64,000 bases of DNA from Longimicrobiales bacterium (GCA_963664435.2 CAXXKM010000003.1:32001-96000), one strand, 5' to 3'; positions 19,530 through 49,161 are shown, counted from the stretch's first letter. Notes: a model not told the origin generated them from the sequence alone. Numbers and translations are program-made.

Positions 19530-19530
19530 C

Positions 19531-23739: not shown

Positions 23740-26505
23740 TCAACGCGGGACGGCCAGGATCATCGCGTCCAGAAGGCGCTTCTCGCGGCTCCAGCGGGGA
23801 TAGAGGGCGGAGAGCGCGTTGGCCAGCCGCAAGAAGGCGGGTCCCCGATCCTGTTCGGCCGCGATCAACTTCCTGAGCGCGTTCGCGTGACCGGTTGCCT
23901 GAAGGAGCATGCCCGCATGGACACGATCGAGCGTGGTCGCGCCGGACCGCTCCAACGCGTCGTCAGAATCAAGGATCGATCTGGCCCCGCGACGACGGCG
24001 TGGACTCGGTGTCGCCGTGGTTTCCCAATCGGGGAAGAGAGCCGGTTGCAGGTCCGCCTGCGGATCCCTTTCGATCCAGTCGGCCGCCGCGTCCGCGCCG
24101 TCCCGGCCGAACAGCTCATCGGCTCGCTCCGACACGGGTAGGAGGCGCACGACACCCTTTTCTTGGCCAATCACCCGACCGGTCCATCGGTCGAGTCCGA
24201 TGCCCATAGGCTGCGAGAACCGTCGCACCACGTCGTAAGGAAGTTTGAGCCCTTGCGCGGCCGCCTTGGCCGCGGCCCGCTGGGCTTTGGCGTCCTTGGC
24301 CGAATCTTCCTGATCGCCTTCAGTGCTCTGGTACGTCCAGAGAAACAGGGCGGTGAGGCGGGCATCCTCTTCGAGCGTGCCCGCGTCGGCCGTGCCGAGC
24401 ACCTGTTCGAGCGCCGCCCGTCCCACGACCTGCCAGACCTTCTCCAGAAAATGGGGCAGGCCGACCTCATTCCCCTCAGCGGTCTCGACGGCGCGATAGC
24501 GGCTGAACACCTCAAGCGCTGGCCCGACGCAAGCGAAGACCAGGTCGGCACCGCGTATGCCCTCGTCCTGGAGCCGCTTCATCCATGCGGCCACGCGGAC
24601 CGGCAATTCTCGGACGACATCGTACCAGTCACCAACCGGGGCGTCATCTGGGCGTGGGCGGCAAATCAAATGCACGCTGGTTGCCAGTGAAGCTGACTCT
24701 CGCGCTCTGAGGCGCGCTTTCCTTTCGGTCGCGATCGGCCAAGATCCGGTGATTGTCCACCCGCCACGAATCATGCCGGAAAGCAGCGCCTCCCATCCTT
24801 CTGTTGTCTTGTGTGCGAAGACCACGGAGCCGACGCCGTCTTCTCGCAGGACGCGGCGGCCTTCTGCGAAGGCCTTCGCCATGGTCTCCTCGAACCAGTT
24901 ACCATCCTTCCGACATCCGTCGGCATCTCGCCTGGTTTCGTCCTGTACTGCTTCGCCGACCTTCGGGGAGAGAGGGTTTTCGGGATCGAACGGATCCAGG
25001 AGGAGGGGGTGACCTGGCTGCGTCCGCTTGAGCCAGACCAGGAAGAAATCCGACAGATCCGAATAGGGGATTGCATCGTAGTACGGTGGATCCGTAAACC
25101 AAAGAGCGCACGTCTCATCCGGGAGGGAATGGCTCGCCGCGTCAACGTTCTCGGCTTGCCCTTGCCCCCTGACGGCTGCCAATGAGAGTGACGCTTCCGC
25201 AGCTTTGTCGGTCACGTCTGCAAGGCCGCCGGCATAGGGTACCAAAGGGTACATCTCGGGGTAGTCCCAAGACATGGGTAGGGTCTGCATTCCGAATGCC
25301 CCCGCCACGGTTTCGCTCCCCCGGTGCCATTTTGCGAGGACGTTGCTATGGCGCAGTAGCTTGCCCATCGCCAGGGCCAGCAGTCTGGCGACGACTTCGT
25401 GTTCCGACTCCACCGCAGACATCAAGAGAGTGACCAGCACCGCCTTCTGACGCGCCGTAAACAGGTCGCCCCATTGGAGCATGCCGTAGCGCTGGACGCT
25501 GAACGCTCGCCCAGCGCCTGACCCGCCTCCGGCGGGGGTAGGCTCGTCCGGCAGCGGACGGAGTCCCTTTCGGCCGCCGACCTCCCACTCGTCCAGTATC
25601 CGGGCGACCGCCGTCTGTGCCCTGCGCACGGGCGCATAGTCCGCGTCCGTGGGCAGTCGGTAGTGCCGCCATCCCCGCTGGCCCGGACGAAACGTGACGA
25701 CCGCCATCATGCGTGCTCCGCCGATCCGGTTGCCTTCCTCGTCGAAGACTGTGTCGGCGCCGCCCCGCTGGGCTGCCAACTGCGACCGCAGCCGCTCCTT
25801 CGGCATCACCGCGCGACAGCACGGGCACGTTGCCTTCGCGTAGGACACCGTGCCGGGATGAACGTCACCTTTCGTCTCCGGCTCAAAGATCTCGAAGGCG
25901 ATCCGCGGCGAAGTGCCAGCGGCCCGTTCGACCGCGAGCCGTAGCGCACGCTTGCGCTTCGGCTTGCTGCACAGCCAGAAGGATTGCGCCAGCGGAATCT
26001 CGGCACCGCAGTTCGGCGACTCACAGCGCACCGTACGCGCCCACAGGTAGGCTAGCGGCGTCGCGCCGTTGGGCTCGGGCGGGTAAAGGTCGACGAGTCC
26101 CTGCCGAGCCTTCTGCTCGACCGATTTCGCGGCCCGTCGCAAGTCCTCGGCCAGCCCGGGGCCGTAGCGCGGAATATCCTCCAGCATGGCCTTGAGGATC
26201 AAGCACGCCACCGGGTTGAGATCGCTGGCGAAAGCCCCGCATCCGAGCCGAAGGGCCTCGAGCGGAATCGATCCACCACCCGCGAACGGGTCCACCACCA
26301 GCGGTGCTTCGTCTCCGTGTGCAGCCTTTACGAGCGCCTTGGCCGTCTCGATCCACGATTGCTTCGCCGAGTGATCCCAGCTTGCAAAATCGGCGATGAA
26401 CTTGAGGAGGATCCGGCGAAGCCCCTCGTCCGTCCCGAGCTCTGCGGTCCACCCAGAGGGGCGCCCGCCCATGCCGAGCAGAATCCGCCGTGCCTCCTTC
26501 CCGAA
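23740..26505 (-). pseudogene. DUF1156 adenine DNA methylase, 3' portion (interrupted by IS1595 element)
   Basis: 'DPFAGGGSIPLEA' and 'TDPPYYD' motifs; joins in frame with 42620-42834 when the IS and one TSD copy are removed (...CPPAFGK|EARRIL...). Confidence 0.93.
26498..26505 (+). repeat. Target-site duplication, left copy (TTCCCGAA)
   Basis: Identical 8-mer at 42620-42627 immediately outside the right TIR. Confidence 0.95.
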
Positions 26506-26528
26506 GGGAATTATACGCCTGCCTTGAC
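26506..26528 (+). repeat. Left terminal inverted repeat GGGAATTATACGCCTGCCTTGAC
   Basis: Exact reverse complement at 42597-42619. Confidence 0.97.
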
Positions 26529-26552
26529 AGCAACCCCGGATCATGTTATTAT
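26524..26552 (+). promoter_or_regulatory. Putative sigma70 promoter of the transposase overlapping the left TIR
   Basis: TTGACA (26524-26529) -17 bp- TATTAT (26547-26552); RBS GAGGGG before ATG 26589. Confidence 0.65.
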
Positions 26553-26588
26553 CAATGTACGCTAAGAGCAACGCAATGAGGGGGTTAC

Positions 26589-27475
26589 ATGGCGGCGAAG
26601 GGACCGGGCAAGCACCACCGCAAGGGCATCACGATGCCGCAGGTCGCGACAATGTTCGCGACCGAGGAAAAGGCAATCCGCTGGTTCGAGTCGTGGGTCT
26701 GGCCGGACGGCGAGATGGCCTGTCTCCGCTGCGGTTCCGTGAACTGCTATCGGGTAAAGTCGGGCAAGCCGATGCCGTACCGCTGTCGGGACTGTCGGTC
26801 GTATTTCTCGCTCAAGACCGGGACGCTCATGGAACAGTCGAAGCTTCCGCTTCGGCTCTGGGGCTGGGCGATCTATCTGGAACTGACGAGCCTCAAGGGC
26901 GTTTCGTCTATGAAGCTGCACCGCGATCTGGGCGTTCGGCAGGCCACGGCGTGGTTCATGTTGCACCGCATCCGGGGCGCGTTCGCGGACATGGCGTTGA
27001 CGTTCGACGGCCCGGTCGAGGTGGACGAAGCGTATTTCGGCGGCAAGCGGAAGAACATGAGCAACACGCGCCGGAAGGAACTGGAGGGCACGGGCCGCGG
27101 GCCGGTCGGCAAGCAGGCGGTGGTCGGCATCAAGGATCGGGCGACGAAGCGGGTTGCCGCGCGAGTGATCGACCGGACGGACGGCGAGACGCTACGGGGT
27201 TTCGTGGACGCTCACGCGAGCGACGGCGCGAAGCTGTACACGGACGATGCCACGGCCTACCGGGGCACCGACCGGGAGCACGAGACGGTCAAGCACTCGG
27301 CAGCCGAGTACGTCCGGTATCTGGAAGGCGAGACGGTCCACACCAACGGCGTAGAGAGCTTCTGGGCCGTGTTGAAGCGAGCGCACAAGGGTGTCTACCA
27401 CCGCCTGTCGCCGAAGCACCTGCAAGCCTACGTGGACATGTTCGCAGCACGCCAGAACGTGCGCGAGATGGACAC
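26589..27475 (+). pseudogene. IS1595-family (ISXO2-like) DDE transposase, 5' portion
   Basis: Zn ribbon 'CLRCGS...CRDC', 'VEVDEAYFGG', 'YTDD', 'HTNGVESFW'; ends abruptly after 'REMDT'. Confidence 0.93.
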
Positions 27476-27950
27476 ACGGAGCACCTGAGGTCCGGATCAC
27501 GGCAGTAGATCTTCTAACTACATACAGGACTGCACGATCTGCGTTTCCTGTCGTTGTACTGGACCTTGCTGGACCGTGCCGCCAAAGCGGGAAAAACGTA
27601 CTTGAATGGCGGGACTCCCGCGCCCGCCCCGCCTCTGACCAAGGTCCCGGAAGCCGACGTTGCCGACCGTCTCCCTCACCGGCAATCGGATCGACCTCGA
27701 CGGCCAAGACGGCCAGCCCGCGATCGGCGTGGATCGCTATCATTCGGCGGTGGGCGGAGCACCGGACGCGGACACCGATGCGCCGACCCTCCGATGGGAT
27801 GCATCATCGCGACGTCGCCCGGCCCGGCTCCCTGAACGGAGAGGCTTGTGGAAGCGAACCGGGCGGTTTCGCTAGATTCCCGGGCCGCCGAGGTTCGGCG
27901 GCCCGAGTGACGACACGCGGCCCGACGCCTTGCCTGCCCGGAGAAACCCG

Positions 27951-28865
27951 ATGCCCGGCTGGACACTTGAAGACATTCCGCCTCTTCGCGGCCGCACGGC
28001 CGTCGTGACCGGAGGCAACACGGGGCTCGGCTTCAGATCCGTTCGCGAGTTGGCCCGCAGGGGCGCGCGGGTCTTCCTGTCCAGCCGCAGCGCGGCCAAG
28101 GGGCAGGCGGCCGTCGGAGCGGTTCTGTCCGACCTGCCGGGCGCGAGGGTCGAGGGCTTCGCGCTGGACCTCACCGATCCGGTGGGCATCGAGCGCTTTG
28201 CCGGACGCGTCGCCGCCCGAACGGGTCGCCTCGACATCCTGCTGAACAACGCGGGCGTGGTGAATCTCGCCGAACTGCAACGGACGCCGCTCGGCCACGA
28301 GATGCACATGGCCACGAACCACTACGGCCACTTCCTGCTCACGGGACATCTGTTCGGGCTGCTGGTGGCAACGCCGGGCGCGCGCGTGGTCACGGTGACC
28401 AGCGGCGCGTACCGGGCCGGCGTCATCGACTTCGGCGATCTGGACTGGCGCGGGCGTCCGTACAGCCGCGGCAAGGCGTACGGCGACAGCAAGCTGGCCA
28501 ACCTGTTGTTCGCGCGGGAGCTTCAGGGACGGTTAGACGCCGCGGGCGCGGCGGCCCTGTCGCTCGCGGCCCATCCGGGCCTGACCGGGACCGAGCGCCA
28601 GCAGTCGGTCGGAATCGGCGGACGGCTCGCCCGCCTGTTGGCCGCCCCGGTCGATGTCGGCGTGCGTCCACAACTGCGCGCCGCCACCGATCCGTCGGCC
28701 GGGAAGCTGGACTTCTTCGGACCCCGGTTCGGGCTGAGGGGACCGGCCCGCCGCATCCCCGTCCGCGGACCGGCCCGCAGCGACGACTTGGCGCGCCGCC
28801 TCTGGAGGGTCACCGAAGAGGTGACGGGCTTCCGCTACGCGGCCGCACCGGGCAACCCCGCGTGA
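27951..28865 (+). CDS. Short-chain dehydrogenase/reductase (retinol DH/WWOX-like oxidoreductase)
   Basis: 'TGGNTGLG', 'LLNNAG', 'YGDSK', 'AHPG'. Confidence 0.92.
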   Translation: MPGWTLEDIPPLRGRTAVVTGGNTGLGFRSVRELARRGARVFLSSRSAAKGQAAVGAVLSDLPGARVEGFALDLTDPVGIERFAGRVAARTGRLDILLNNAGVVNLAELQRTPLGHEMHMATNHYGHFLLTGHLFGLLVATPGARVVTVTSGAYRAGVIDFGDLDWRGRPYSRGKAYGDSKLANLLFARELQGRLDAAGAAALSLAAHPGLTGTERQQSVGIGGRLARLLAAPVDVGVRPQLRAATDPSAGKLDFFGPRFGLRGPARRIPVRGPARSDDLARRLWRVTEEVTGFRYAAAPGNPA

Positions 28866-29140
28866 GCTACGTGGTCACCGTGCCTTGGAAGTAGCAGAAG
28901 CCGCTGGCCCTCGTCCAGAACGTGATCCGCGTCTTCCTGTCGTCTCGAATCTTCAAGTATCGAACTGTCAGACTGCACTTGTTGGTGTCCGGGTCGTAGG
29001 TCCGACGCTCACAGCCTTCCAAGGACTGCATCAAACCCATCGGGAGTGAGGCCAGCGCTTCGGAACGCGCGAAGGCAGCCTGACCGTTCTCGGAGCCAGA
29101 CTGGCCTGGAGATGGGGGCCGGCGGCGGCCCCGCAACCAC

Positions 29141-29950
29141 TCAGCCGACCGATCCCTTCTGTCTGGCTCCCGGGTCGGGAGCCACGAGCGTGTCAGGAGT
29201 TACCCGCAACGGCAGAAGGGAATCCGGCGCGACGCTCCGGATGCCGCTCTTGTAGGGATCGCGGAGTGTGGGCATACACCCTCGCTCCAAGCGCTTGCGG
29301 CCGATCCGTCCCGAGTAAAGAAAGGCGCCTCCGACTGCGACCGAGATTGCAGCGACGCCCACCTTTTCCCCGGAAGTCCGTTCCGCGTCCCCCACACTCC
29401 CCGCAAGGCCGCCCAACAGCCACACTGACCCACCTAAGACGTCCCCTGCGAGAGGGAGCACATCCCGAAATCTCAAGTCCCTGCACCAGGCCCCATCCGC
29501 CGGAATTGTCGGAGACGGCGCCGCTCCGGGGCTCAGTTCTTTCAGGCGCTGGCTCTGCCACCGCCGGTGCAGCGCGCGGCATTCGTTGATGCGTTCAAGC
29601 CCGGTTTTGGCTTGATTGTAGCCGGCAACCCCTCCGGCAAGTCCCATGCCCGCACCGGTGAGCGCCGCTGTCACCCCCTCCCCTCCCGGTTCCAATCCAC
29701 CCGCCGCAGCAACGGCAAGGCCCGTCACGCCGACGATGCCCAGCAATGTGGCACCCGCAAGATAGGCTCCGGGCAAGATCGAAGTCGTCGTGCATTGGGG
29801 CGCGCTCGCAGCCAAACCGGGCGCGGCGATTCCCGTTCGAGGCGGTTCCTGAATGAAGAGTGTGGAACAACCGCTCAGCGAGGCCGCCAGTGCGAGCAGC
29901 ACCAGAACGCTGGCCGGTCCACGGGCGGCTTTGATCATCGACATCATCAT
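29141..29950 (-). CDS. Hypothetical membrane lipoprotein
   Basis: Lipobox 'LSGC' after a hydrophobic signal; two Cys-flanked pairs of Gly/Ala-rich TM helices. Confidence 0.6.
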   Translation of the reverse strand: MMMSMIKAARGPASVLVLLALAASLSGCSTLFIQEPPRTGIAAPGLAASAPQCTTTSILPGAYLAGATLLGIVGVTGLAVAAAGGLEPGGEGVTAALTGAGMGLAGGVAGYNQAKTGLERINECRALHRRWQSQRLKELSPGAAPSPTIPADGAWCRDLRFRDVLPLAGDVLGGSVWLLGGLAGSVGDAERTSGEKVGVAAISVAVGGAFLYSGRIGRKRLERGCMPTLRDPYKSGIRSVAPDSLLPLRVTPDTLVAPDPGARQKGSVG

Positions 29951-30061
29951 GAAATGCTTCCTTGCGCTGTCGGGCAGTTGGAACACTTCGTCCCGGCGAT
30001 TCGGCCCGCCCGACAACTCAACATGTGCGTTTTGCCCCGTGTCGGGGCCTGCCGCAGCCCA

Positions 30062-30700
30062 CTACCCGATCGGGATGTTGATCCCCGCTTGGATGGCCAA
30101 GTGCCGCGTCATGGCGTCGTCGTCCTCGGCCACCGGCGCAAGGCCGAGCGAGTAGAGCACGTCAACGCCCAAGCGCATCCCGGCCATGGGGAAGTCCGCG
30201 CCCGCGCCCAGGGCGATCCCGTAGTCCAGGGCCTTGGTCTCAAGCTCTGCGTCGGAGCAACTCGAACTGATGTTGACGCCCTCCCCCGGAGCGGAAGCCT
30301 CCAGATTGCAGGAGAGCCGCAACGCGATCCATGGACCGGCCATCACGCCCACGAACAGTCCGCCCTCGGCGTGTGTGCCGATGCGCGCCAACCCCGAGAA
30401 CTGGGCGTAGTCGATGTTGAGCCCGACGCTCAATCCTTCGAGCTCATCGGCACCGAACCCTCCGCCTTTCTGCACGTAGGCGCCGCCGACCCTGATGTCG
30501 AACAGTCCGGGTCCGGGAATGGTCAGGTCCGCGCTCACGACGATGCCGCTGCGGGATCCGGAATCGAGACCCACTTCCTCGACGGAAACGGAGGCGAAGC
30601 CGGCTCCGCCCCGCAGACCGAGGGTCTTCTGGGCCGTCAGGGGAGCGGCGATCAGAATGAGGCCGGCAAGAGCCAGCAGGATGGGGATGCGTTTCTTCAT
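30062..30700 (-). CDS. Outer-membrane beta-barrel (porin family / PorT-like) protein
   Basis: Signal peptide, 'GLRGG', 'YVQKG', 'DYAQF', alternating beta strands. Confidence 0.8.
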   Translation of the reverse strand: MKKRIPILLALAGLILIAAPLTAQKTLGLRGGAGFASVSVEEVGLDSGSRSGIVVSADLTIPGPGLFDIRVGGAYVQKGGGFGADELEGLSVGLNIDYAQFSGLARIGTHAEGGLFVGVMAGPWIALRLSCNLEASAPGEGVNISSSCSDAELETKALDYGIALGAGADFPMAGMRLGVDVLYSLGLAPVAEDDDAMTRHLAIQAGINIPIG

Positions 30701-30730
30701 CGTTTGCCTTTCATTTCAGGGGGTTCTGCT

Positions 30731-33700: not shown

Positions 33701-33774
33701 CCGGGCCGGACGCCTTCTAAGTACAGCCGCTACATATGTTTCGGGGGGGGGGGGGTAGCTGAAGCGAGGGTCAT
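30731..33774 (-). CDS. Surface lipoprotein with five Ig-like repeats and three CARDB-like domains; plausible ATG (33774) is out of frame at a C13 tract
   Basis: Lipobox 'VVAC', repeats 'F.DPDGD.L.Y.A.SS', CARDB 'PDL...GESDT.NNCS'; start uncertain (ORF track extends to GTG 33922). Confidence 0.8.
32561..33106 (-). repeat. Two near-identical tandem 273-bp (91-aa) Ig-domain repeats
   Basis: 'NRPPVAVGTLQPQ.IEVGQS.TLDV.ASFSDPDGDDLSYTAASS' starts at 33106 and 32833. Confidence 0.9.
33743..33755. repeat. G13/C13 homopolymer in the 5' end of the Ig-repeat gene
   Basis: TC-GGGGGGGGGGGGG-TAG seen directly. Confidence 0.95.
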
Positions 33775-33928
33775 GTTGTGGTCCAGTGGTGGCAAACGAC
33801 GCTTGGTGGTCCGGGGGTGGCGCAACGCCCCCAAACCGGTACCCACTACAATCTACAAGCACTCGGTGGGCTTCGCATCTTGTCGCCCGCGAACGACCCC
33901 GGCCCGGATCGGATCGGCGCACCGTCCA

Positions 33929-36022
33929 TCAGGGGCGAATGATCCCCACCACCCGGCCATGCCGGTCGCGGACCTCGATGGGGCCGCGGATCACGTCTTC
34001 GCCGAGAGGGACGGCGCGGCTTCGATGCGCACGCAACGCGGCCGCGCCCGGAAGACGGTAGGCGTCGGCGAGGTCCGTTCGCGCGGCGTACCCCATATCC
34101 GAGAGCGACGCGATCGTTACCGCGCTGAGGGGCATCACGGGCTCGGCGCTCGGATTCATCAGTTCGTTGCCGAATACGTTCTTGCGCCAATGCACGTCGT
34201 CCCTGCCGCGGCGGATCCCCTTGTTCTCCACCGGGACCTTGGAACCGGCGGTGTAGGAGGTCCCGCCCGCTTCGTCGAACGCCCGGATCGCAAGCGCTCC
34301 CGCGAAATGCGTGTCCACCTCCCGCTCCACAGGCAGCGATGGATTGCGCAGGAGCCCGAACCCGTCCCACAACGGGCCGATGCCGAGCACATGGCCCATC
34401 TCGTGGAGAATCACGGATTCCAGAATCCCTTCCGCCTCCATCCAGGCCATGTCCGCCGCGTCAAACTCCATCACGCCGAACCATGGAAGCATCGATCCCG
34501 CGCGAGTCCCGCACGGTCCGGCTCGACCGATCGTCCCGCCGACGCCGTCTATCTCCTCGACTGACGCCACGATCATCAGGTCATCGACGACACTCACGTC
34601 TTGCTCGTGCGTCCTGGCCGGGGATCGGCACGTGACAACGCCTTCCGGCACCGGCATGTCCGGCAACTCCGTGTCTTCCAGTATCTCCATCCACCGCGCC
34701 GCCATTCTCTGGAACGCCTTCTCTTGCGCGGCCGTCAGCACCGTGGCGAAGCGGATTTCGATCTGGAAGGACCTAGGGTCCCCGGGGCCGCCTGCCACCG
34801 TCGCTTGGAAGGACAGCGCGGCCGATAAGTCGCCCGAGTCTGAAGCCAGGACGGTGACCGTGACCCGCCCCTCGCGCACTCCCCAAAGCAGCAGGGTCTC
34901 TCCACGCACCTCCACCGACGCGACCGCAGAGTCCGAAGACGATGCCACATAGGTCAACGTGTCCCCGTCCGGATCCGAGAAGCGGCCCGCAAGATCCAGC
35001 CGGATCGTATCGCCCGCACCCAAATCGACATCCGGCAGGGCACCGGTCGTAATCGGTGCCCGGTTCCGAGCTTCCGCGCCGAACATGTGAGCCGCCGTCA
35101 GGCCGTCGGGGTCGCGCGCGGTCACCGTGATCGCCGCCCGCCCCGCCCCGAAAGCGGTCAGGCGCACGGACTCGCCCAAGACGGTCGCCGCAACCGCGCC
35201 GGGACTCGACGACGACGAAGCGTAGCGCAGCGGCTCTCCGTCTGGATCGGCGAAAAACGGCGCAAGGTCGATCACGCGCGTCTCTCCGCGCCGCATGACT
35301 TGACCCTCGATCACGCCCAGCGCGACCGGTTCCCGGTTGGGTACCTCGAAACCGAACACCTGAACAGCCGCCAGGCCCCCGGGATCCGTCGCCGTGACGG
35401 CGACGGAGGCGGTGCCCCTCGCCCGCGCCGCCAACGTCGCCCGATTGCCCGAGACGGCCACGCCCGCGACTTCGGCGTCCGAGACCGTCACCCGGAAGCG
35501 AAGGTGCTCGCCGTCCGGCTCCTCGAACCAGGACGCAAGATCGACGACTACCTCCGCGCCCGCCTCGACCCTTTGCTCCGGGACCGTGGCCACTGCCCGC
35601 GGCGCCCGGTTCGGCACGACGACCTCGAAACTCTGCTGATCTCCAAGCCCCGCCGGATCGGTGGCCGTCAGCATGACCGTCGCGGTGCCCGGGGCGATGG
35701 CGCGCACCGTCACCTCCGCCCCCGCAACCGAGACCGTGGCCACCGAGGGGTTCGATGACCCGACCGCGTAACTCAACGCATCGCCGTTCACGTCATTGAA
35801 GCAGGCGGTGACGCCGGACGTGTCCCCCACGTGGACCGTCAACTGGGGCAGCGCACCGCAAGCCGCGGGCGCCAGTGGGCTATCGCACGCGGCGACCAGT
35901 ACCCCGAGGGCGAGGACGACCCATGCTTGGGAGCGCATGCTGCCTCGAAATCTCCTCCGGGAAGGCGAGCGAGGGAAGGACAATGGCAAGGGAAGGACAA
36001 TGGCAGGCTCCGTCCGCGCCAT
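33929..36022 (-). CDS. Surface lipoprotein with four Ig-like repeats and a C-terminal leishmanolysin-like (M8-type) Zn metalloprotease
   Basis: Lipobox 'VAAC', Ig repeats, 'ILHEMGHVLGIG', distal 'HW' and 'ELM' Met-turn; start 36022 or 35938. Confidence 0.82.
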   Translation of the reverse strand: MARTEPAIVLPLPLSFPRSPSRRRFRGSMRSQAWVVLALGVLVAACDSPLAPAACGALPQLTVHVGDTSGVTACFNDVNGDALSYAVGSSNPSVATVSVAGAEVTVRAIAPGTATVMLTATDPAGLGDQQSFEVVVPNRAPRAVATVPEQRVEAGAEVVVDLASWFEEPDGEHLRFRVTVSDAEVAGVAVSGNRATLAARARGTASVAVTATDPGGLAAVQVFGFEVPNREPVALGVIEGQVMRRGETRVIDLAPFFADPDGEPLRYASSSSSPGAVAATVLGESVRLTAFGAGRAAITVTARDPDGLTAAHMFGAEARNRAPITTGALPDVDLGAGDTIRLDLAGRFSDPDGDTLTYVASSSDSAVASVEVRGETLLLWGVREGRVTVTVLASDSGDLSAALSFQATVAGGPGDPRSFQIEIRFATVLTAAQEKAFQRMAARWMEILEDTELPDMPVPEGVVTCRSPARTHEQDVSVVDDLMIVASVEEIDGVGGTIGRAGPCGTRAGSMLPWFGVMEFDAADMAWMEAEGILESVILHEMGHVLGIGPLWDGFGLLRNPSLPVEREVDTHFAGALAIRAFDEAGGTSYTAGSKVPVENKGIRRGRDDVHWRKNVFGNELMNPSAEPVMPLSAVTIASLSDMGYAARTDLADAYRLPGAAALRAHRSRAVPLGEDVIRGPIEVRDRHGRVVGIIRP

Positions 36023-36264
36023 GCAAGTCGCTCGCGGAACGTCAGTCGCGCGGCTCACGCCCTCCCCTCTTCTATCGCCAAGCTGATCTGTCCGCAGCGG
36101 TCGCCGAAGACACCGGAGGTCGGCCCTTGAAAGCATGATCCGGGTCGCCGGGGCCAGCCCCGCCAGCGGCTCGGATGGCCGCATACTCCGAAACCCGGGC
36201 GGGGCAGACGGCGTAAGGATACGAGGCGGCTTCGTCCGCAAGGGCCGGATCCCCGGTGGGCCAG

Positions 36265-36296
36265 CGGCGAACGCAACGGTTCGCCGGGGTTTTTTT
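36265..36296 (+). terminator. Intrinsic-terminator-like hairpin
   Basis: CGGCGAAC-gcaacg-GTTCGCCG followed by GGG and T7; no + strand gene directly upstream. Confidence 0.45.
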
Positions 36297-36657
36297 GGCG
36301 CTCCCGCCTCTAGAGCCGTACTGAAACGCGCAAACGACATGGGGGGTCAATGCGCACCTTGGCGATCCGGCGCTACGCACCGGCCTTCCCGCTTATCCGC
36401 TGGCGCGGCAACGCTTTTCGGCCTCGCCGCCCGTGCGCCCGTGGCGCACTGGCCGCTCAAGGCGTGACCGTAGCGACCCGGCAGTCCGAGGGCCTGCTAC
36501 GGGTTCGGGGGCAGGTGTGTTTGCGCACCCCTTCCCCGACCCCTTACGGGTCGCTACCGAACCAGCGATCCCTGCGGGAAGGCAGTACAGCCCCCGTCCC
36601 GGTGCTTGTCTGCACTCGAGCACCGAACCCGTCGCCGCCGGGAACGTCAATCGGGGC

Positions 36658-37113
36658 TCAGAACGAAATGTAACCGCCCATTTGGAAGAGCACGATGTTG
36701 GTATCGTCGGACCCGTCTCCGACGTGGAGGATGAAGCGCGCTCCGTAGCGCCGTCCGAACGTCAGGCTCGCACCGGCGGTCGGCGAAACGCCTCCGCCGT
36801 CGTACTCGATGCCCGCGCGCAACGCCGGGCGAACGACCCAACCGGAACGCCCGAGGAGGACCGACGCGCCGATCCGGTTGGCGGACCCGGCCAAGTCGGC
36901 GCACCGGTAGTGCTCCACCATCCCGTACAGCGACACCGGCCCGGCGACGCGCCCGCTGACGCCGACGTAGTGTCCGGGACACGCGACGCTGTTGCCGCCG
37001 ACGATCCCGGCTTCGAGAACGAAACGGCTCGGCACTTCCCGTGCCTCGTCCGTTTCCTGCGCCTGAACCTGCGAAGGCACCAGAGCCAGACAAGCCAGCA
37101 GCAGCTTTCGCAT
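36658..37113 (-). CDS. Small exported outer-membrane beta-barrel-like protein
   Basis: Signal peptide 'MRKLLLACLALVPSQVQA', RBS AAGGAG, C-terminal 'GYISF'. Confidence 0.7.
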   Translation of the reverse strand: MRKLLLACLALVPSQVQAQETDEAREVPSRFVLEAGIVGGNSVACPGHYVGVSGRVAGPVSLYGMVEHYRCADLAGSANRIGASVLLGRSGWVVRPALRAGIEYDGGGVSPTAGASLTFGRRYGARFILHVGDGSDDTNIVLFQMGGYISF

Positions 37114-37428
37114 CTCGATGCTCCTTCCGCCGGTTCACGTGCTCCGGAGGTGGCCATTCCCTCCGGCCGGGTCCCTGTCGCTACCACCCGCCAGGAATGC
37201 TCGCCGCACTCGGCTTCGTTGACAAGCAGTATCCGCGAGGGAGCGGGTAGCGACCCGTCCCGGCGTTCCATGCGAACTCCGCGAGCCGGTCGGCGAGTCG
37301 CGGCGCTTCCCGATTCTCGACTTCCGGGCCATGATTCGTGGTGCTTGCGGACGGGCAGCTCCGAGAGCTGTTCGCCCTCCTCAGGCCGCCAGGGCCGCGA
37401 AGCTGTTGTCCCTAATCGTGAGAACCGA

Positions 37429-38472
37429 ATGGAATCCACAAAGGGCTTGCTCGGAGGGGCGCGATTGATCTGCGGACTGCTCGTGTCGCTCGTTGCCGGA
37501 TGCGTCACGGGACCCGGCGAGGCGGAACCGGTTGTCGGCCTGATCACCAAGACCGAGGACAATCCGTTCTTCGTGACGATGAGGGAGGGCGCAATCGAGC
37601 GCGCCGGTGTACTCGGCGTCGAACTGCGCGCCTTCGCCGGGAGATTCGACGGGGACACGGACACTCAGGTTCGGGCCATCGAGAATCTCCTGGCCGCGGA
37701 CGCGAGGGGGATTCTGATCACGCCGTCGGATCCCGTGGCGCTGCTGGACGCGGTCGATCGGACGCGGCGGGCCGGCGTGCTCGTCATCGCGCTCGACACG
37801 CCCTTCGATCCGGCGGACGCGGTGGACGGAACGTTCGCCACCGACAACTTCCGGGCCGGGGAGTTGATCGGCATGTGGGCTCGGGGCCGGCTGGGTGCTT
37901 CCGCCGCCGACGCGAGGATCGCTACGCTGGACGGCGCGGGGACGCAGGTCACGGTCGAGGTCCTGCGCAACCAAGGCTTCCTCGACGGCTTCGGCATCGA
38001 CATCAAGGACCCGAACAGGATGTACGACGAAGACGACCCCCGCATCGTGGGGAGCGCCCCCACCATGGGCACCGAGGAAGGCGTGCGAGCCGCCATGGAA
38101 CGCCTGATGCGGGATGATCCGGCGATCAACGTGGTGTACGCGATCAATGAACCGGCCGCCGCCGGAGCCTCCGCGGCGCTCCGGGGGCTGGGCGTGCAGG
38201 ACGATGTTCTCATCCTCACCATCGACGGTGGCTGCGAAGGTGTCCGGAACGTGGCGGCTGGCGAGATCGGGGCCACGTCGATGCAGTATCCACTGAGAAT
38301 GGCCTCCCTAGGAATCGAAGCCGTTGTAGAGTTCCTGACAACGGGCGCAAGGCCTGAGAACACGCCCGGCCTGGATTTCCACGACACGGGCGTAACCCTG
38401 GTCACCGACGAGCCGGTTCCGGGGATCCCGTCCATCGGCGCTGAACAGGCGTTGAACGAATGCTGGGGATGA
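37429..38472 (+). CDS. Sugar ABC transporter substrate-binding lipoprotein (FrcB-like), orphan
   Basis: Lipobox 'VAGC', 'LITKTEDNPFFV', 'ATDNFRAG', 'DGGCEGV', ends 'CWG'. Confidence 0.9.
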   Translation: MESTKGLLGGARLICGLLVSLVAGCVTGPGEAEPVVGLITKTEDNPFFVTMREGAIERAGVLGVELRAFAGRFDGDTDTQVRAIENLLAADARGILITPSDPVALLDAVDRTRRAGVLVIALDTPFDPADAVDGTFATDNFRAGELIGMWARGRLGASAADARIATLDGAGTQVTVEVLRNQGFLDGFGIDIKDPNRMYDEDDPRIVGSAPTMGTEEGVRAAMERLMRDDPAINVVYAINEPAAAGASAALRGLGVQDDVLILTIDGGCEGVRNVAAGEIGATSMQYPLRMASLGIEAVVEFLTTGARPENTPGLDFHDTGVTLVTDEPVPGIPSIGAEQALNECWG

Positions 38473-38797
38473 CCGTCGACGTGGCCGAGTCCTTAAGGCG
38501 TCGCAGTCTGCCTTCCTGCAAGGATTGATGGCCGGGAGTGACCCCGAGGCGGGGGTGGGATGGCGTGCACATCCCAACCATCGCCGTGGCGTGTGAGGCA
38601 TGCCGAACACCGGGGTCACTCCCGCCACGGCCGCACACTCTGGAACGGCACCGCCGTTCGTGCGGCCGTGGTGCAACCGCAACGCGGGCAGCCACATACG
38701 GAGTCCTTGCCCGCGCACATGGACTCGGTGATTCCGTGCACATGCACCCCGATGTCGATGTGCACGCGCGGTACGCCACCGGCCGGCCGATCAGAAG

Positions 38798-38887
38798 TCA
38801 AAGTCTCAAGCGCATGTAGGCATGCTCCTCGCGCACGCCGATCGTGCGGGTCCTGCGCTCGGCCTCGGGTTTCCGGGGACGAACCAT
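38798..38887 (-). pseudogene. Truncated MobC-like N-terminal stub
   Basis: 'MVRPRKPEAERRTRTIGVR' after RBS GGGGAGG, same position relative to the oriT-like hairpin as mobC in element 1; stops after 29 codons. Confidence 0.55.
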
Positions 38888-38929
38888 GTCCGGGCGGCCT
38901 CCCCTTGGTGGCGCGCGGAACGTCGTTGC

Positions 38930-38988
38930 GGGGGTCCGGGGGATACCCCCGGCCAGAGGTTTTCGTGAAACAAAAACACATCTGGCTC
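38930..38988 (+). promoter_or_regulatory. Putative oriT 2 (orphan)
   Basis: CCGGGGG-ata-CCCCCGG hairpin then GCCAGA-GGTTTTcgtgaaacAAAAAC-ACA-TCTGGCT; same architecture as oriT 1. Confidence 0.6.
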
Positions 38989-39227
38989 CACGGAAACCCC
39001 GCAAACGCGGGGCAGAGTCTCGACCCACCGAGCGGCCGCTCACCCCCACGACGGCGACCGCAACCACCCAACCAGTCGTGATCGCGCCCTCGGCGGGGGC
39101 GGGTCGCGCATATACGCACCTCCCCCGGAAAGGTAACGCATCGGTCCGGGCACGACTGGCGGAGGAGCTTTCTCTCCGCGACCTTTCGTTCGCGCAGATC
39201 GTGCGGTCCATCACCGAGAGGAATCGA

Positions 39228-40391
39228 ATGATGGCACGCACGAAACGAAGTCGGCGCTCCTACGGCGCCGGTGAATGGGGCCGGAACCGGGTCAGGGTGT
39301 TCCCCGACCGGAAAACCGGCCTCTACCAGATAGAGTGGCGAGAGAACGGGCGAAGGCTCACCCGGTCGCTTGGACATCGCGATTGGGCTCGCGCGAAGCG
39401 GCAGGCCGACGAGGCCGCCGCCGATTTCGCGACGCCGGAGATGAACGGCAAGAAGGACGCCGAGCCCGAGCCGCTCACTCTGGGTACGCTTTTTGAAATC
39501 TACGGAGAGGAGGTGACGCCCTCCAAAACGGAGCGGGTCCGGTGCCGGGACAGGACCGCGACAACCATGTTCCTCCAGTTCTTCGGCGGGGACCGGGACC
39601 CGGCGACTCTGTCGCGGCGCGATTGGGACCGGTTCATCCAGGAGCGCCGCGCCGGGAGGATCGGCCCCAGCGGCAAGCCCGTGTCCGACCGGATGGTCGA
39701 ACACGACCTGACGTTCCTGGTCGCGGTCCTCAACTGGGCCGCAAGGTCTAGGGACGACCGGGGCCGCCTGCTCCTCGACAGGAATCCGCTGAAGGGCCTC
39801 AGGAAGCCCACGGAGAAGAACCCCAACCGGGTCGTCCTCACCGACGACGAGTACCGGGCGCTGCTCGGGGTCTCTCGGCGGGTCGATTGGCGATTCCACG
39901 TCGCGCTGGTGCTCGCCCACGAGACGGGGCACCGGATCGGGGCGATCCGTCAACTGAGGTGGACGGACATCGACCTTGAGGGCAGGACCATCCGGTGGAG
40001 GGCCGAGCACGAGAAGACCGGTTACGAACACACCACGCCGGTGACCGACGAGGCGGTCGCGGCCTTGGAGGAGGCACGGAGCTTGGGCGCGGGAACGGGC
40101 GACGCTCCAGTGCTGCCCGCGGCGGAGGATGCCTCCCGGTGCATGGGCCGCGCATGGGCCTACCGCCTGTGGTGCAGGGCGCAGACCCTCGCGGGGCTGG
40201 AGCCGAAGCGGGGGCGGAGTTGGCACTCGCTGAGGCGCAAGTTTGCCAGCGACCTCATGGAACTGCCGCTCAAGGTGCTCTGCGAGCTTGGCGGCTGGAA
40301 GAACGCACACACGGTGCTCAGGTGCTACCAGAGGCCCGACGCGGGACGGCTCAGGACGGCTCTGGAAAGCCGCCCGAGGGCTCGCGCCTGA
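39228..40391 (+). CDS. Tyrosine recombinase/integrase 2 (close paralogue of integrase 1)
   Basis: MMARTKRSRRSY start, 'ETGHRIG', 'HSLRR', 'GGW', 'RCY'. Confidence 0.93.
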   Translation: MMARTKRSRRSYGAGEWGRNRVRVFPDRKTGLYQIEWRENGRRLTRSLGHRDWARAKRQADEAAADFATPEMNGKKDAEPEPLTLGTLFEIYGEEVTPSKTERVRCRDRTATTMFLQFFGGDRDPATLSRRDWDRFIQERRAGRIGPSGKPVSDRMVEHDLTFLVAVLNWAARSRDDRGRLLLDRNPLKGLRKPTEKNPNRVVLTDDEYRALLGVSRRVDWRFHVALVLAHETGHRIGAIRQLRWTDIDLEGRTIRWRAEHEKTGYEHTTPVTDEAVAALEEARSLGAGTGDAPVLPAAEDASRCMGRAWAYRLWCRAQTLAGLEPKRGRSWHSLRRKFASDLMELPLKVLCELGGWKNAHTVLRCYQRPDAGRLRTALESRPRARA

Positions 40392-40494
40392 GATTTCGCA
40401 ATCGGCGGGAATCAAACAGCGGTAATTTCGTCCGCCGAATACCTAACACAAACAGGCACAACACGATACAAACTTCATAGTGCTTGCTGGACAC

Positions 40495-40594
40495 GCTCGC
40501 CCAGATTCAGCACGTCGTTGCCGCGATGATCGGTCGGCGGCTCATGTACCGGGATCTGGTGGCCGACACGGGCCGGTCGGCGGCAGCAGTCTAA
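40495..40594 (+). pseudogene. IS1595 transposase, 3' portion
   Basis: Reads (MDT)LAQIQHVVAAMIGRRLMYRDLVADTGRSAAAV* in frame with 26589-27475; 'GRRLMYRDL' is a typical IS1595 C-terminus. Confidence 0.88.
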
Positions 40595-40688
40595 ATCCTG
40601 CCCCAACCCCTTGCGCGGGCGCAAGGGCTGGCGGCACTCTGGGCGCAATAGGTTTGCAACACAGACCAGACCACAGGAGCCCGGAATG

Positions 40689-40717
40689 TTGACCTGCGCC
40701 GCGCGTGTCCGTAGGCT
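40689..40717 (+). promoter_or_regulatory. Putative sigma70 promoter for the passenger methylase
   Basis: TTGACC -17 bp- TAGGCT. Confidence 0.5.
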
Positions 40718-40726
40718 CGCGGAGGG

Positions 40727-40758
40727 ACCGCCCCACCGCCCCACCGCCCCACCGCCCC
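40727..40758 (+). repeat. (ACCGCCCC)x4 tandem repeat in the methylase leader
   Basis: Four exact octamers seen directly. Confidence 0.92.
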
Positions 40759-40785
40759 AGTTAGATCCCGCGCCGGATCGCGGCC

Positions 40786-42393
40786 ATGACTGCGCCCGGA
40801 TTGCAGCCCAACACGCTCTACTACGGGGACTGCCTTGAATGGCTGCCCCGCTTCCCGGCTGAATCGGTGGACCTGATCTACCTCGATCCGCCGTTCAACT
40901 CGAACACGAACTACAACCTGTTGTTCGGCAATGGCAACCTGACGCGGAACGGCGGGAGGAGTGCCCAGGTCCGTGCGTTCGACGATACCTGGCGCTGGGA
41001 CGATGCCGCCGCCCGTCGGGTGGATCGTCTCACGCGAGCTGCCGCGCACCCGGCACATAAGGCGGTTGTCGGACTCCGCACGCTGATCGGGGAAGGCGGG
41101 ATGCTGGCCTACCTGACGTACATGGCGGAACGGCTCGCAGCCATGCGGCACGTCCTGAAGCCGTCCGGGAGCATCTACCTGCACTGCGACCCGACGGCGA
41201 GCCACGGGCTCAAGCTCGTCATGGACACCATCTTCGGCCCGCGCAACTTCCGCAACGAGATCACTTGGCAGCGGTCCACCGGGCACAACACGGCACACCG
41301 TTACGGCAACGTCGCGGACATCCTGCTCTATTATTCCCGGTCCAATTCCCCGACGTGGAATCGGCAATATCAGGGCTATGGCGAATCACAACTGAAGCGA
41401 TTCCGCCACCGGGACAACCGGGGCCGGTACAAGCTGGATGACCTTACGGGCGCGCGCCCCAATTCCGACTCCGGCAAGTTCGAGTGGCGCGGCACGATGC
41501 CGCCCGCGAGCCGGGGCTGGGGCTACACGCTGGAGCAACTTGAGGAATGGTGGGCGGAGGGCCGCATCCACGCGAAGCGCGACGGGACACCGCGCATGGA
41601 CGGCTTGAAGGTGTATCTCCGGGACGCACCCGGAAAGCCGCTCCAGAACATCTGGACGGATATTCCCCGGATCGCCAACACGGCGCGGGAACGGCTAGGA
41701 TACCCTACGCAGAAGCCCCTTGCGCTCCTGTCGCGCATCATTGAAGCGAGCAGCAACGAGGGCGACCTGATCCTCGATCCCTTCTGCGGATGTGGGACGG
41801 CAGTGGCGGCTGCGCACAAGCTCAATCGCCAGTGGGCCGGAATCGATATCAGCCCGTTCGCGATCGATCTGATCGCGAGCAAGCGGTTCCCGGAGTTCAA
41901 GGTGCCGACCGAGGGTTACCCCTACGATCTCGCCGGGGCCGCGAAGCTCGCGAGGGAACAGCCGTTCAAGTTCGAGAAGTGGGCCGTGACCCGCGTTCCG
42001 GGGCTCGCGCCGAATGACAAGCAGGTCGGCGACGGCGGGGTGGACGGTGTGGGCTACCTGCTGGCGAAGCCCGAAAACGGCGCGACCGATCAGGTGCTCG
42101 CGCAGGTCAAGGGCGGCAAGTACCAGTTGGGCCAGCTCCGGGACTTCCTCGGCGTGCTGGAGCGCGAGAAAGCCGCGATGGGCGTCTACGCCACCGTGAA
42201 CCCGATCCGTGCGCCGGGAGCCCATGCGGAAGCCGCGAGACGCGGCAGGATGCGGCTGGGTGCGACCGAATACCCGCGCGCGCAACTGTGGTCGATCCGA
42301 GACTACTTCGATGACCGGATGCCGACGCTTCCCGCGCTGGCTGACCCGTACACCGGCAAGCCCGTGCAGGGCTCGCTACAAATGGCACTCTGA
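40786..42393 (+). CDS. Site-specific DNA methyltransferase (N4/N6, beta class) with C-terminal Mrr-like PD-(D/E)xK domain; IS passenger
   Basis: 'YLDPPFNS', 'YPTQKP', 'LDPFCGCGT'; C-term 'FEKWAV...DGGVDG...AQVKGG'. Confidence 0.9.
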   Translation: MTAPGLQPNTLYYGDCLEWLPRFPAESVDLIYLDPPFNSNTNYNLLFGNGNLTRNGGRSAQVRAFDDTWRWDDAAARRVDRLTRAAAHPAHKAVVGLRTLIGEGGMLAYLTYMAERLAAMRHVLKPSGSIYLHCDPTASHGLKLVMDTIFGPRNFRNEITWQRSTGHNTAHRYGNVADILLYYSRSNSPTWNRQYQGYGESQLKRFRHRDNRGRYKLDDLTGARPNSDSGKFEWRGTMPPASRGWGYTLEQLEEWWAEGRIHAKRDGTPRMDGLKVYLRDAPGKPLQNIWTDIPRIANTARERLGYPTQKPLALLSRIIEASSNEGDLILDPFCGCGTAVAAAHKLNRQWAGIDISPFAIDLIASKRFPEFKVPTEGYPYDLAGAAKLAREQPFKFEKWAVTRVPGLAPNDKQVGDGGVDGVGYLLAKPENGATDQVLAQVKGGKYQLGQLRDFLGVLEREKAAMGVYATVNPIRAPGAHAEAARRGRMRLGATEYPRAQLWSIRDYFDDRMPTLPALADPYTGKPVQGSLQMAL

Positions 42394-42410
42394 CCCGGAA
42401 GGCACCACCA

Positions 42411-42614
42411 ATGAGCGACAAGCGAGAGAAGCCGTTCGATGTGCGGGCGACCAACCCGCGCTACGGCGGCGCGATGATGAGCGACGTAGTCCGGGCATTG
42501 TTCCGCCCGCTCGATCCGAAGGTGCGGGAGCGCATCGCGGCCCGCGAAGCCCGCCGGTCTGTCACGCCGGAGAAGGTGGAGGATGGAGAGTCCGGCGTCA
42601 AGGCAGGCGTATAA
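42411..42614 (+). CDS. Small hypothetical IS passenger protein; stop codon lies in the right TIR
   Basis: 67-aa ORF 17 bp after the methylase stop, filling the space to the TIR. Confidence 0.5.
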   Translation: MSDKREKPFDVRATNPRYGGAMMSDVVRALFRPLDPKVRERIAAREARRSVTPEKVEDGESGVKAGV

Positions 42615-42619
42615 TTCCC
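42597..42619 (-). repeat. Right terminal inverted repeat (followed by TSD 42620-42627)
   Basis: GTCAAGGCAGGCGTATAATTCCC then TTCCCGAA. Confidence 0.97.
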
Positions 42620-42834
42620 TTCCCGAACGCGGGCGGACAGTGCGGATCGCACGGATCCGGCAACAGAAGCGCCATAAGAACCGCACGCGACGAGGCGAGC
42701 GGACGACGCGCCCACCAGAGGTGGAGCGTATGGGGGTGTCCCTTGCGTGATCGGTCCTCCCCGACCGCGTGGCGTGACACCTCGGCAATGGGGAAATCGA
42801 CCTCGGCCAGCCGTTTGCACTCGCGTGGGATCAT
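42620..42834 (-). pseudogene. DUF1156 methylase, 5' portion
   Basis: 'KRLAEVDFPI...GHPHTLHLWWARRPLASSRA' DUF1156 N-terminal signature; ATGA-coupled to upstream gene. Confidence 0.93.
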
Positions 42835-43991
42835 GAGGACAGTTCGCCTTCGGGCGAGGAGGCTCCGCCATCTAGGGGATTGGGTGCCGTACCCTCGACG
42901 AGCATCGTCCGCGTGCGTTCGATCTCCGATGCGAGGAGTTCCTCGTCCGGTAGCGCGGTCCGGTATTCGGACGCCATGACCTTGTTCGGCAGACCCTCCA
43001 GTGCATACCGCGCCACTGCTTCATCCTTCTGAGCGCAAAGGATCAATCCGACCGGAGGGTTCTCCTCCCGGCGGACCCAATTCTCACGGGCGTAGTTCAG
43101 GTAGAGATGCATCTGTCCGGCATCAGCGTGCGTGAACTTCCCGATCTTCAGGTCGATGACCACGAGACACCGAAGGCGGCGGTGAAAGAAGAGAAGATCG
43201 ACGCGGTACCACTCGTCGCCGATGCGCAGCCGCCTTTGCCGGGCGATGAAACAGAAATCCCCTCCCAGTTCCAAGAGGAAGGACTCAAGGTGGCGGATCA
43301 GCGCCTCCTCAAGATCGCTCTCGGAGTACTCGTCCTTCAGGTCGAGGAATTCGAGGACGAACGGGTCCTTGATCTCTTCCTCAGGAAGAATGCTGTCTCC
43401 GGGACGCGCCGTACCGCCCTCGCCGAGCAAGGCGGCCTTGTTCCTCGAAAGGGCGGTTCGCTCGTAGAACTGGGTGTTGATCTGCCGGTCGAGTTGGCGA
43501 ACGGTCCAGCCTCCGCGAAGCGCTTCGGCCTCGTAGAAGGTGCGGGCGCGCTGCTTTCGCACCGAGAGCAGCCGAACGTAGGCGGACCAGGGGAGCGGAA
43601 ACCGTGACCGGATGGTGTCCAGCAGGGATTCTGCAGACACTGTCTGCATAATTCGATCGTCTTCCGATTCTGCAGACGGTGTCTGCACAATCGGCCATGC
43701 AAGGTAGAACGCTCGCATGAGCCAGACGTTACGGACCGAGAAGCCCCGGCCGTACCGCGCCGAGAGGTCGGCCGCGAGCCGCTCGACGGTCTCCTTGCCG
43801 TACTCCGCCCGGCTCCTCCCTTCCTGTTCGAGTTCGGCGATCTGCCGTCCGATCAACCAGTACGCGGCGGTCATCACGGCGTTGACCGAACGGGCCGCCG
43901 ACCGCCGGGCGGCTTCGACGATCTCGGAAACCTCGCCGAAGATCGCATCGTACCGGGCAACCTCGCCGGTGGATGGCACGGGCTTCTTCAT
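42831..43991 (-). CDS. DUF1016/YhcG PDDEXK nuclease family protein
   Basis: 'YWLIGRQI', 'GRGFSVRN', 'IKDPFVLEFL', 'RVDLLFFH..IDLK', 'GQMHLYLNY'; ATG 43991 overlaps helicase stop. Confidence 0.92.
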   Translation of the reverse strand: MKKPVPSTGEVARYDAIFGEVSEIVEAARRSAARSVNAVMTAAYWLIGRQIAELEQEGRSRAEYGKETVERLAADLSARYGRGFSVRNVWLMRAFYLAWPIVQTPSAESEDDRIMQTVSAESLLDTIRSRFPLPWSAYVRLLSVRKQRARTFYEAEALRGGWTVRQLDRQINTQFYERTALSRNKAALLGEGGTARPGDSILPEEEIKDPFVLEFLDLKDEYSESDLEEALIRHLESFLLELGGDFCFIARQRRLRIGDEWYRVDLLFFHRRLRCLVVIDLKIGKFTHADAGQMHLYLNYARENWVRREENPPVGLILCAQKDEAVARYALEGLPNKVMASEYRTALPDEELLASEIERTRTMLVEGTAPNPLDGGASSPEGELSS

Positions 43992-48360: not shown

Positions 48361-48509
48361 AGCACGTCCAAATGCCCTCCATTTGGCCCGGTTTTCCGGC
48401 CTTTTCGGACCGGCAGACCCCGGCACACCCCAACGGCAAGAAGCGCAGATCGTGCAGTCCCAGTTAGACTTACGTGATCTTATGCCGTGATTCGCGTCCC
48501 GATTTGATC

Positions 48510-48555
48510 GCTTTGGGAGCAGGAGGTCGCCGGTTCGAATCCGGCCGCCCCGATT
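48510..48555 (+). repeat. attR: duplicated 3' half of tRNA-Pro
   Basis: 46 bp identical to 9102-9147; lacks the tRNA 5' half. Confidence 0.97.
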
Positions 48556-49030: not shown

Positions 49031-49104
<74 letters not shown>

Positions 49105-49161
49105 CCTCGTCTCGTTTTCCGTCGGCCGATTGGCTGCCGGAGAGCGTCCAGCCTCCGGGTT

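Follow-up and report, generated by a model that had tools for sequence, protein, structure and literature searches.

Three nested mobile elements in a Longimicrobiales genome, with a usual and a secondary attachment site for the innermost

Introduction

How do three mobile elements come to lie one inside the other, and does the innermost control the element that it interrupts? The question is raised by a stretch of 64,000 nucleotides from a Longimicrobiales bacterium (GCA_963664435.2 CAXXKM010000003.1:32001-96000), here called the window, in which positions are counted from the first base. An integrase element lies in the transposase gene of an insertion sequence (IS) of the IS1595 family, the IS lies in hmaB, the DUF1156 methylase gene of an Hma defence system, and the Hma genes lie on an island in a tRNA-Pro gene. 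An earlier note on this DNA had proposed that the insertions are recent, that they occurred in the order island, IS, inner element, that each layer disables a key gene of its host, and that excision of the inner element could act as a switch on IS mobility. Our analysis indicates that three separate recent insertions by two well-known mechanisms very probably produced the locus. The main new point is that the inner element has a usual attachment site in a permease gene, as against the secondary site that it occupies in the transposase gene.

In the proposed course of events, a 39.4-kb integrative mobilizable element (IME) would have recombined with the 3' end of the tRNA-Pro gene, and the 46-bp duplication of the attachment (att) site would have rebuilt that gene. 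A 3.1-kb IS1595-family element with a methylase-Mrr passenger would then have transposed into codon 72 of hmaB, making an 8-bp duplication. Last, a 13-kb element would have entered codon 296 of the transposase gene by conservative site-specific recombination, with the crossover within the 7-bp core TGGACAC. We infer catalysis by the encoded integrase, the order of these events, and the loss of function of HmaB and the transposase.

Results and discussion

Junctions of the three layers

The three layers and all their junctions are present as the earlier note described them. The outer island is bounded by an exact 46-bp direct repeat (attL, 9102-9147, on the integrase-proximal side; attR, 48510-48555), and the left copy is the 3' part of the tRNA-Pro(TGG) gene (9072-9145, + strand; ARAGORN; Rfam tRNA, 68.5 bits). 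The IS (26506-42619, + strand; 3,095 bp without the inner element) has inverted ends at 26506-26528 and 42597-42619 that match at 23 of 23 positions, and it is flanked by the 8-bp target-site duplication TTCCCGAA (left copy 26498-26505, right copy 42620-42627). The inner element (27476-40494, + strand; 13,019 bp) has the core TGGACAC at 27469-27475 and 40488-40494, and its integrase-distal conserved arm begins at 27476. TGGACAC occurs 544 times in the genome, and a 7-bp repeat on its own is at chance level. Here, however, the core is placed exactly where the identity to a second copy of the element ends and where the transposase frame is restored.

When 27476-40494 was removed in silico, an open reading frame (ORF) of 987 nt without stops was obtained, encoding a transposase of 328 amino acids. 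This protein aligned with the 328-residue homologues P0122 and P0123 from 1-328 on 1-328 at about 90% identity with 0 gaps, and the join is located within the conserved stretch REMDTLAQIQ. Removal of 26498-42619 gave a DUF1156 ORF of 2,973 nt and 990 amino acids, which aligned with P0003 from 1-990 on 1-990 at 89% identity, again with 0 gaps. Both rejoined genes are intact, as had been claimed, and colinear with full-length homologues. The recent date proposed for the insertions was also upheld: no repeat has diverged, neither rejoined ORF is broken, and a single nucleotide in 13,019 separates the inner element from its second copy.

We considered whether the nesting could be a chimeric mis-join made at repeated elements during assembly. 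The genome contains two nearly identical copies of the inner element, and such repeats can mislead assemblers. However, a mis-join would not give a perfect 8-bp duplication, inverted ends matching at every position, a core repeat and two in-frame, gap-free ORFs. For each copy of the inner element, the left flank agrees with the right, and a 16.7-kb insertion in one copy only sets the two copies apart. An assembly artefact is therefore extremely unlikely. Seven sequencing runs from 4 studies matched window 26300-27700, with shares of 0.94-0.98 in four runs of one study and of 0.75, 0.65 and 0.19 in the others; they may include the source sample and are given no weight here.

Attachment sites of the inner element

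The second copy of the inner element lies in the same genome (G000) on another contig (C2:141261..111564), in a different gene, the C-terminal part of which matches the xanthine/uracil permease family. TGGACAC was found at both junctions of both copies. The permease and transposase sites have 12 contiguous bases in common, TGGACAC|GCTCG; the attB in the permease-family gene reads ...GCGCTGGACAC|GCTCGGGG... and that in the transposase gene ...GAGATGGACAC|GCTCGCCC....

The permease site was then compared at 16 fetched loci. Twelve are uninterrupted, three are occupied and one is an uninterrupted paralogue. The occupied sites are those of the second copy in this genome and of genomes G005 and G011, where the same site holds elements with 94-97% identical integrases. 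The empty alleles in 12 genomes read ...CTGGACAC|GCTCGG..., with a 1-nt core variant in 4 of the 12. Twelve congeners thus have the site empty and three genomes have it filled; judging from these alleles, the permease gene holds the usual attachment site, and the site in the transposase gene is secondary. The same core occurs at independent sites and stands only once in the empty ones, which argues for conservative site-specific recombination and not for a duplication made by transposition. The comparison points to the insertion in the transposase gene as an off-target landing and not as an evolved control of the IS. With defined primary and secondary sites and with empty alleles, the integrase family to which the element belongs offers a natural system for the evolution of target specificity in tyrosine integrases and for competition between mobile elements.

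These results bear on the proposed switch, in which a regulated and precise excision of the inner element would turn on IS mobility and the IS would likewise gate the defence methylase. Excision by a tyrosine recombinase is conservative and would restore the 328-residue ORF exactly, and the inner integrase is uninterrupted in the window copy. There are also precedents for genes restored by excision, namely the skin element in sigK of B. subtilis, the nifD element of Anabaena and the comK prophage of Listeria. As in these systems, a tyrosine- or serine-recombinase element breaks a gene that precise excision would restore; in them, however, the element keeps to one site and leaves it on a developmental or infection cue, whereas the inner element is at a secondary site. 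Its usual attB is the permease gene in three genomes, and the transposase site has only the 12-bp stretch in common with it. Four intact IS copies in genome G006 carry a near-identical TTGGACACGCTCG that is unoccupied, despite 20 integrase matches in that genome. Occupancy of the transposase site is not conserved, as related IS copies are uninterrupted there, and this genome has no second copy of the IS on which a switch could act repeatedly. The single nucleotide by which the two inner-element copies differ marks the arrangement as very young, and excision of the IS from hmaB would be imprecise. The switch is possible in principle but unsupported, and we consider it highly improbable.

As to the order of events, the inner element is almost identical to the resident copy on the other contig, and its entry into the IS therefore most likely took place in this lineage, once the IS was already there. 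The inner element could instead have entered the IS first, and a 16-kb composite could then have moved into hmaB; or the island could have reached tRNA-Pro with both inner layers already in place. The truncated transposase, with its zinc ribbon and complete DDE domain, might still be active, and no sequence feature dates the integration of the island relative to the IS. However, the 32-residue tail that it lost is strongly conserved among homologues, suggesting that the tail is needed. Such a different order is very unlikely. Of the order given in the earlier note, the late arrival of the inner element is retained as most likely, but the island was not shown to have come first and the IS may predate its arrival at tRNA-Pro.

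Some observations weigh against the three successive insertions that we favour. The 12-mer TGGACACGCTCG is also present at two unoccupied places in this genome, so that either 12 bases are insufficient for integration or those two sites are merely unused. No excisionase was found for the inner element; the small ORFs upstream of its integrase gene are without a Pfam family, and the start codon of the integrase itself is inferred. Neither an empty site from this strain nor a circle was seen, with no search aimed at circle junctions. The truncated transposase lacks the last 32 residues only and retains the whole zinc ribbon and DDE catalytic domain. Finally, the assembly is backed by internal consistency alone, a consistency that is strong.

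The inner integrase and its cargo

The inner tyrosine integrase (39228-40391, + strand; about 387 amino acids from the assigned start; Pfam Phage_integrase 8e-19) has HRIGAIR, HSLRRKF and LRCY in its translation, which we take to be the R...HxxR...Y catalytic residues. Its NCBIfam matches are of the Xer type and weak, and no sequence relative was found among solved structures at E <= 0.001. The gene is 75% identical in DNA to the integrase gene of the outer island, and the two integrases are paralogues of one family.

The genes that the inner element carries look like ordinary genes of the cell envelope. Pfam and NCBIfam identified an SDR oxidoreductase (27930-28865, + strand) and, on the - strand, an OMP beta-barrel protein (30062-30700), an Ig/PKD/CARDB repeat protein (30731-33922) and an Ig-repeat protein with a leishmanolysin-like peptidase domain (33929-36340). 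The ORF at 36433-38472 encodes a sugar-binding periplasmic protein, with Pfam Peripla_BP_4 over residues 368-635. The two large surface-type proteins (30731-36340) contain tandem Ig/PKD/CARDB repeats of 273 nt (91 amino acids).

The IS1595-family element

The transposase gene is divided by the inner element into an N-terminal part of 295 codons and 2 nt (26589-27475, + strand), which encodes the zinc ribbon and the complete DDE domain (Pfam DDE_Tnp_IS1595 9.1e-37 and Zn_ribbon_IS1595 4.8e-06; NCBIfam transpos_IS1595, 183 bits against a cut-off of 75), and a C-terminal part with the last 32 codons and the stop (40495-40594, + strand). The passenger gene (40786-42393, + strand) encodes an N6/N4 DNA methylase fused to an Mrr-type nuclease domain, 535 amino acids in length (Pfam N6_N4_Mtase 1.3e-42, Mrr_cat 5.8e-05).

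Related IS loci in other genomes were analysed for the same features. Both inverted ends were found in 10 of 14 loci, with 1-6 mismatches to the end in the window, and 9 of these 10 have perfect 8-bp duplications of differing targets. The shortest form, of 1,456 bp, is without a passenger and occurs four times in one Longimicrobiales genome, and the longest measures 5,172 bp; the IS core is conserved and the passenger variable. At one locus (L008), a related IS of 3,021 bp carries a passenger with 77-81% DNA identity to that in the window. Because the same ends and 8-bp duplications recur at different targets, the IS is, by comparison with its relatives, a genuine mobile unit with variable cargo. 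The IS1595 family as described in ISfinder includes members with passenger genes, and an 8-bp target duplication is typical of the family. The element in the window resembles the passenger-carrying members in its DDE_Tnp_IS1595 and zinc-ribbon domains, its terminal inverted repeats, its 8-bp duplication and its variable passenger. It differs in that the passenger is a methylase-Mrr nuclease fusion and in that the transposase gene is broken by a 13-kb integrative element.

The split hmaB gene and the Hma system

PADLOC identified an Hma system on one strand, consisting of the HmaA helicase, the HmaB DUF1156 methylase and the HmaC DUF499 ATPase, of which hmaB is split by the IS. The hmaC gene, encoding a DUF499 AAA+ ATPase, lies at 20797-23595 (- strand; PADLOC HmaC 1.2e-87) and hmaA, encoding an SNF2 helicase with a NOV_C domain, at 43988-47485 (- strand; PADLOC HmaA 3e-168). 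The C-terminal part of hmaB, from codon 72 to the stop, lies at 23740-26497 (- strand; PADLOC HmaB 1.5e-79) and is colinear with P0003 once rejoined to the N-terminal part, codons 1-72, at 42620-42834 (- strand; Pfam DUF1156 3.3e-19). The break at codon 72 leaves pieces of 71 and 918 residues, and HmaB is probably inactive. Homologues in two congeners (G016 and G002, 79% identity) are unbroken across residue 72. A 912-residue HmaB protein of 90% identity, P0002, begins at the same internal Met as the broken hmaB in the window and could be another interrupted hmaB allele.

The claim that each layer disables a key gene of its host layer holds in part. hmaB is split, and the transposase is without 32 conserved residues. 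However, hmaB is cargo and not a mobility gene of the island, and the DDE domain is complete.

In the Halomonas experiments reported in PMC11232893, hmaA alone gave defence against T4, and a restriction-modification-like role of HmaB was not seen. Mobile genes within Hma loci are already on record: in the survey figures of bioRxiv 10.1101/2024.01.29.577857, 62.7% of 1,485 Hma systems contain embedded genes, and mobility genes make up 3.1% of the embedded genes. Like the known Hma systems with embedded genes (PMC8565338; bioRxiv 10.1101/2024.01.29.577857; PMC11232893), the system in the window has hmaA, hmaB and hmaC on the same strand and another defence candidate between hmaA and hmaB, a YhcG/DUF1016 PD-(D/E)XK nuclease (42831-44171, - strand; PADLOC PDC-S02). 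It is unlike those systems in that the mobile DNA lies inside the hmaB reading frame and splits the gene, rather than being intergenic. A defence methylase gene was split by an IS that brought its own methylase-nuclease gene, and the IS in turn was struck by an island; the locus is a clean and fully resolved example of the decay and rebuilding of a defence island by mobile DNA.

An insertion hot spot in DUF1156 genes was considered and rejected. The protein collection contains 823 short N-terminal DUF1156 fragments; among 120 of them examined, homology stops anywhere in residues 57-142, and in 5 of the 120 at 71-72. Most likely these fragments are frameshifts and partial genes.

The outer island in tRNA-Pro

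At the locus without the island, found in four congeners (G001, G006, G009 and G017), the tRNA-Pro flank and the right flank are 0.84-1.53 kb apart, compared with 39.5 kb here, which identifies the island as an insertion. Empty alleles were thus found among relatives both for the outer island and for the permease site. In G005, another island with a related backbone lies near the same tRNA-Pro site.

The tyrosine integrase gene of the island (9193-10458, - strand; 421 amino acids; Pfam Phage_integrase 7.5e-17) adjoins the tRNA-Pro gene. It is followed by the gene for a MobA/VirD2-type (MbeA-like) relaxase (10458-12080, - strand; Pfam Relaxase 4.6e-07; NCBIfam MbeA 4.6e-28, under the curated cut-off). 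No type IV secretion families were found by Pfam among the 37 ORFs scanned, and the weak TrwB/FtsK matches are those of HerA. On this gene content, the segment 9147-48555 (39.4 kb) is a predicted IME with defence cargo. Besides Hma, the cargo includes a GmrSD-like type IV restriction enzyme (13242-15062, + strand; Pfam GmrSD_N and GmrSD_C; PADLOC Orf5 / mREase_IV / HEC-06) and a defence pair at 17664-20709 (- strand) of SIR2 (19531-20709; PADLOC 1.3e-132) and HerA (17664-19529; PADLOC 5.6e-148).

The island resembles known tRNA-targeting islands and IMEs with a tyrosine integrase in several respects: the integrase lies beside the 3' end of the tRNA gene, the 46-bp att duplication rebuilds the tRNA, the cargo is defensive, and a relaxase is present while conjugation machinery was not found in the ORFs scanned. 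It is unlike them in that its integrase is without a solved-structure relative (E <= 0.001) and has weak Xer-type NCBIfam matches, and in that most of the paralogues use cores of 7-11 bp in protein-coding genes and not in tRNA genes.

Some further features were noted in and beside the island. The cargo also includes a 207-residue ORF (15663-16286), probably a remnant, whose match to MmeI-type (type IIG) enzymes is confined to their N-terminal domain. The segment beside it, 15164-15637, has 90% identity to DNA flanking the tRNA-Pro locus of genome G014. To the right of the island lie a complete rRNA operon (16S, 23S, 5S), tRNA-Arg and tRNA-His (window 51885-56999 and 49031-49398).

The integrase family in the genus

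When the integrase was used in tblastn, 32 matches were obtained in this genome, 27 of which include the C-terminus. The integrase-distal arm is present in 44 copies. Of 25 candidate end pairs, 20 are in register, with the core repeat at a distance of about 7-9 bp outside the distal arm (a longer distance at tRNA and one other site) and about 95 nt past the integrase stop; the other five were dropped as off-register or alternative pairings. Most elements have a core of 7-11 bp, but at tRNA-Pro and tRNA-Val the core is 18-46 bp long. The elements measure 4-50 kb. Among the other genomes of the genus, 17 of 18 have the family, each with 1-39 matches; elsewhere in the order, it was found in 1 of 12 genomes from other genera.

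In the C2 copy of the inner element, the integrase gene is interrupted in turn: at about residue 56 it contains a sibling element of 16.7 kb (C2:112665-129332), and an 11-bp repeat, CGAAGCGGCAG, flanks the insertion. A further match spanning the junction of this integrase-in-integrase arrangement was found in G000, and there are three such matches in G005 and one in G010. They suggest that one sub-lineage targets the integrase genes of its siblings. The three junction copies in G005 carry an identical permease flank and may represent one segmental triplication. The junctions, at which the integrase-proximal arm of one element adjoins a sibling's integrase gene from about residue 56, are at G000 C1:1571004-1571195, at G005 C1:9130-9329, 4667761-4667960 and 4806329-4806528, and at G010 C3:944764-944957.

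With one integrase family amplified to tens of copies per genome, and with its many different short cores, nesting of this kind is to be expected in the genus. It is a habit of the family, of which the window shows one instance. Nested mobile elements are known; among those described in PMC7168690 are integrative mobilizable elements inside streptococcal integrative conjugative elements. The locus is like these Russian-doll elements in that one mobile element lies within a gene of another, with clean junctions and with different recombinases in the layers. It is unlike them in having three layers with an IS in the middle, inner and outer integrases that are paralogues in a genus-specific family, and a Gemmatimonadota host. 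Mobile DNA is commonly nested in this way, and unusually often so in this genus. Of more use than the nesting itself is the integrase family, which across this sponge-associated genus of Gemmatimonadota has diversified to tens of elements per genome.

A further arrangement of family elements was seen at G000 C3:1131978-1202463, where a tRNA-Val gene (C3:1152266-1152340) lies between two elements with convergent integrases. One of them uses the 3' part of the tRNA and the other the 5' part.

Folded repeats, leader and arm motif

Two copies of a folded repeat of about 300 nt face each other in the inner element (36314-36585, - strand, and 38507-38802, + strand; nhmmer E 3.3e-13 and 2.2e-88) and bracket the gene for the sugar-binding periplasmic protein. 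The fold is conserved, with compensatory changes in 17 of 71 predicted pairs, a value reached by 0 of 500 shuffles. The same pair of repeats was found at three other integrase loci of this genome with only 107-109 bp between them, and the 107-bp spacers have no similarity to the content of the slot in the window. Rfam gave no match in 38300-39300 at E <= 1.

The locus might be read more broadly as the product of a conflict within one genus-specific integrase family with up to about 39 matches per genome. Attachment specificity would have spread over many short cores, a sub-lineage would integrate into the integrase gene of its siblings at about residue 56, and many members would carry a cargo slot between facing folded repeats of about 300 nt beside the integrase. 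We put this forward only tentatively and regard it as rather doubtful. If the integrase recombined the folded repeats, the family would amount to a cassette system like that of integrons, on self-mobile islands that attack each other.

Upstream of the inner integrase gene lies a conserved leader (38830-38991, + strand) with a covarying hairpin. The leader recurs upstream of many integrases of the family, and one hairpin pair is UA in 8 sequences versus AU in 7. In addition, the motif GGAC(T/C)GCACGATCTGCG occurs twice in both the inner element and the outer island: one copy lies in the integrase-distal arm, and the other, in inverted orientation, where the integrase gene has its 5' end. It is located at 27528-27545, 39190-39210, 10383-10403 and 48440-48460, the last of these in the conserved integrase-distal arm just inside the outer attR (about 48370-48509). 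The motif could be an operator or an arm-type site.

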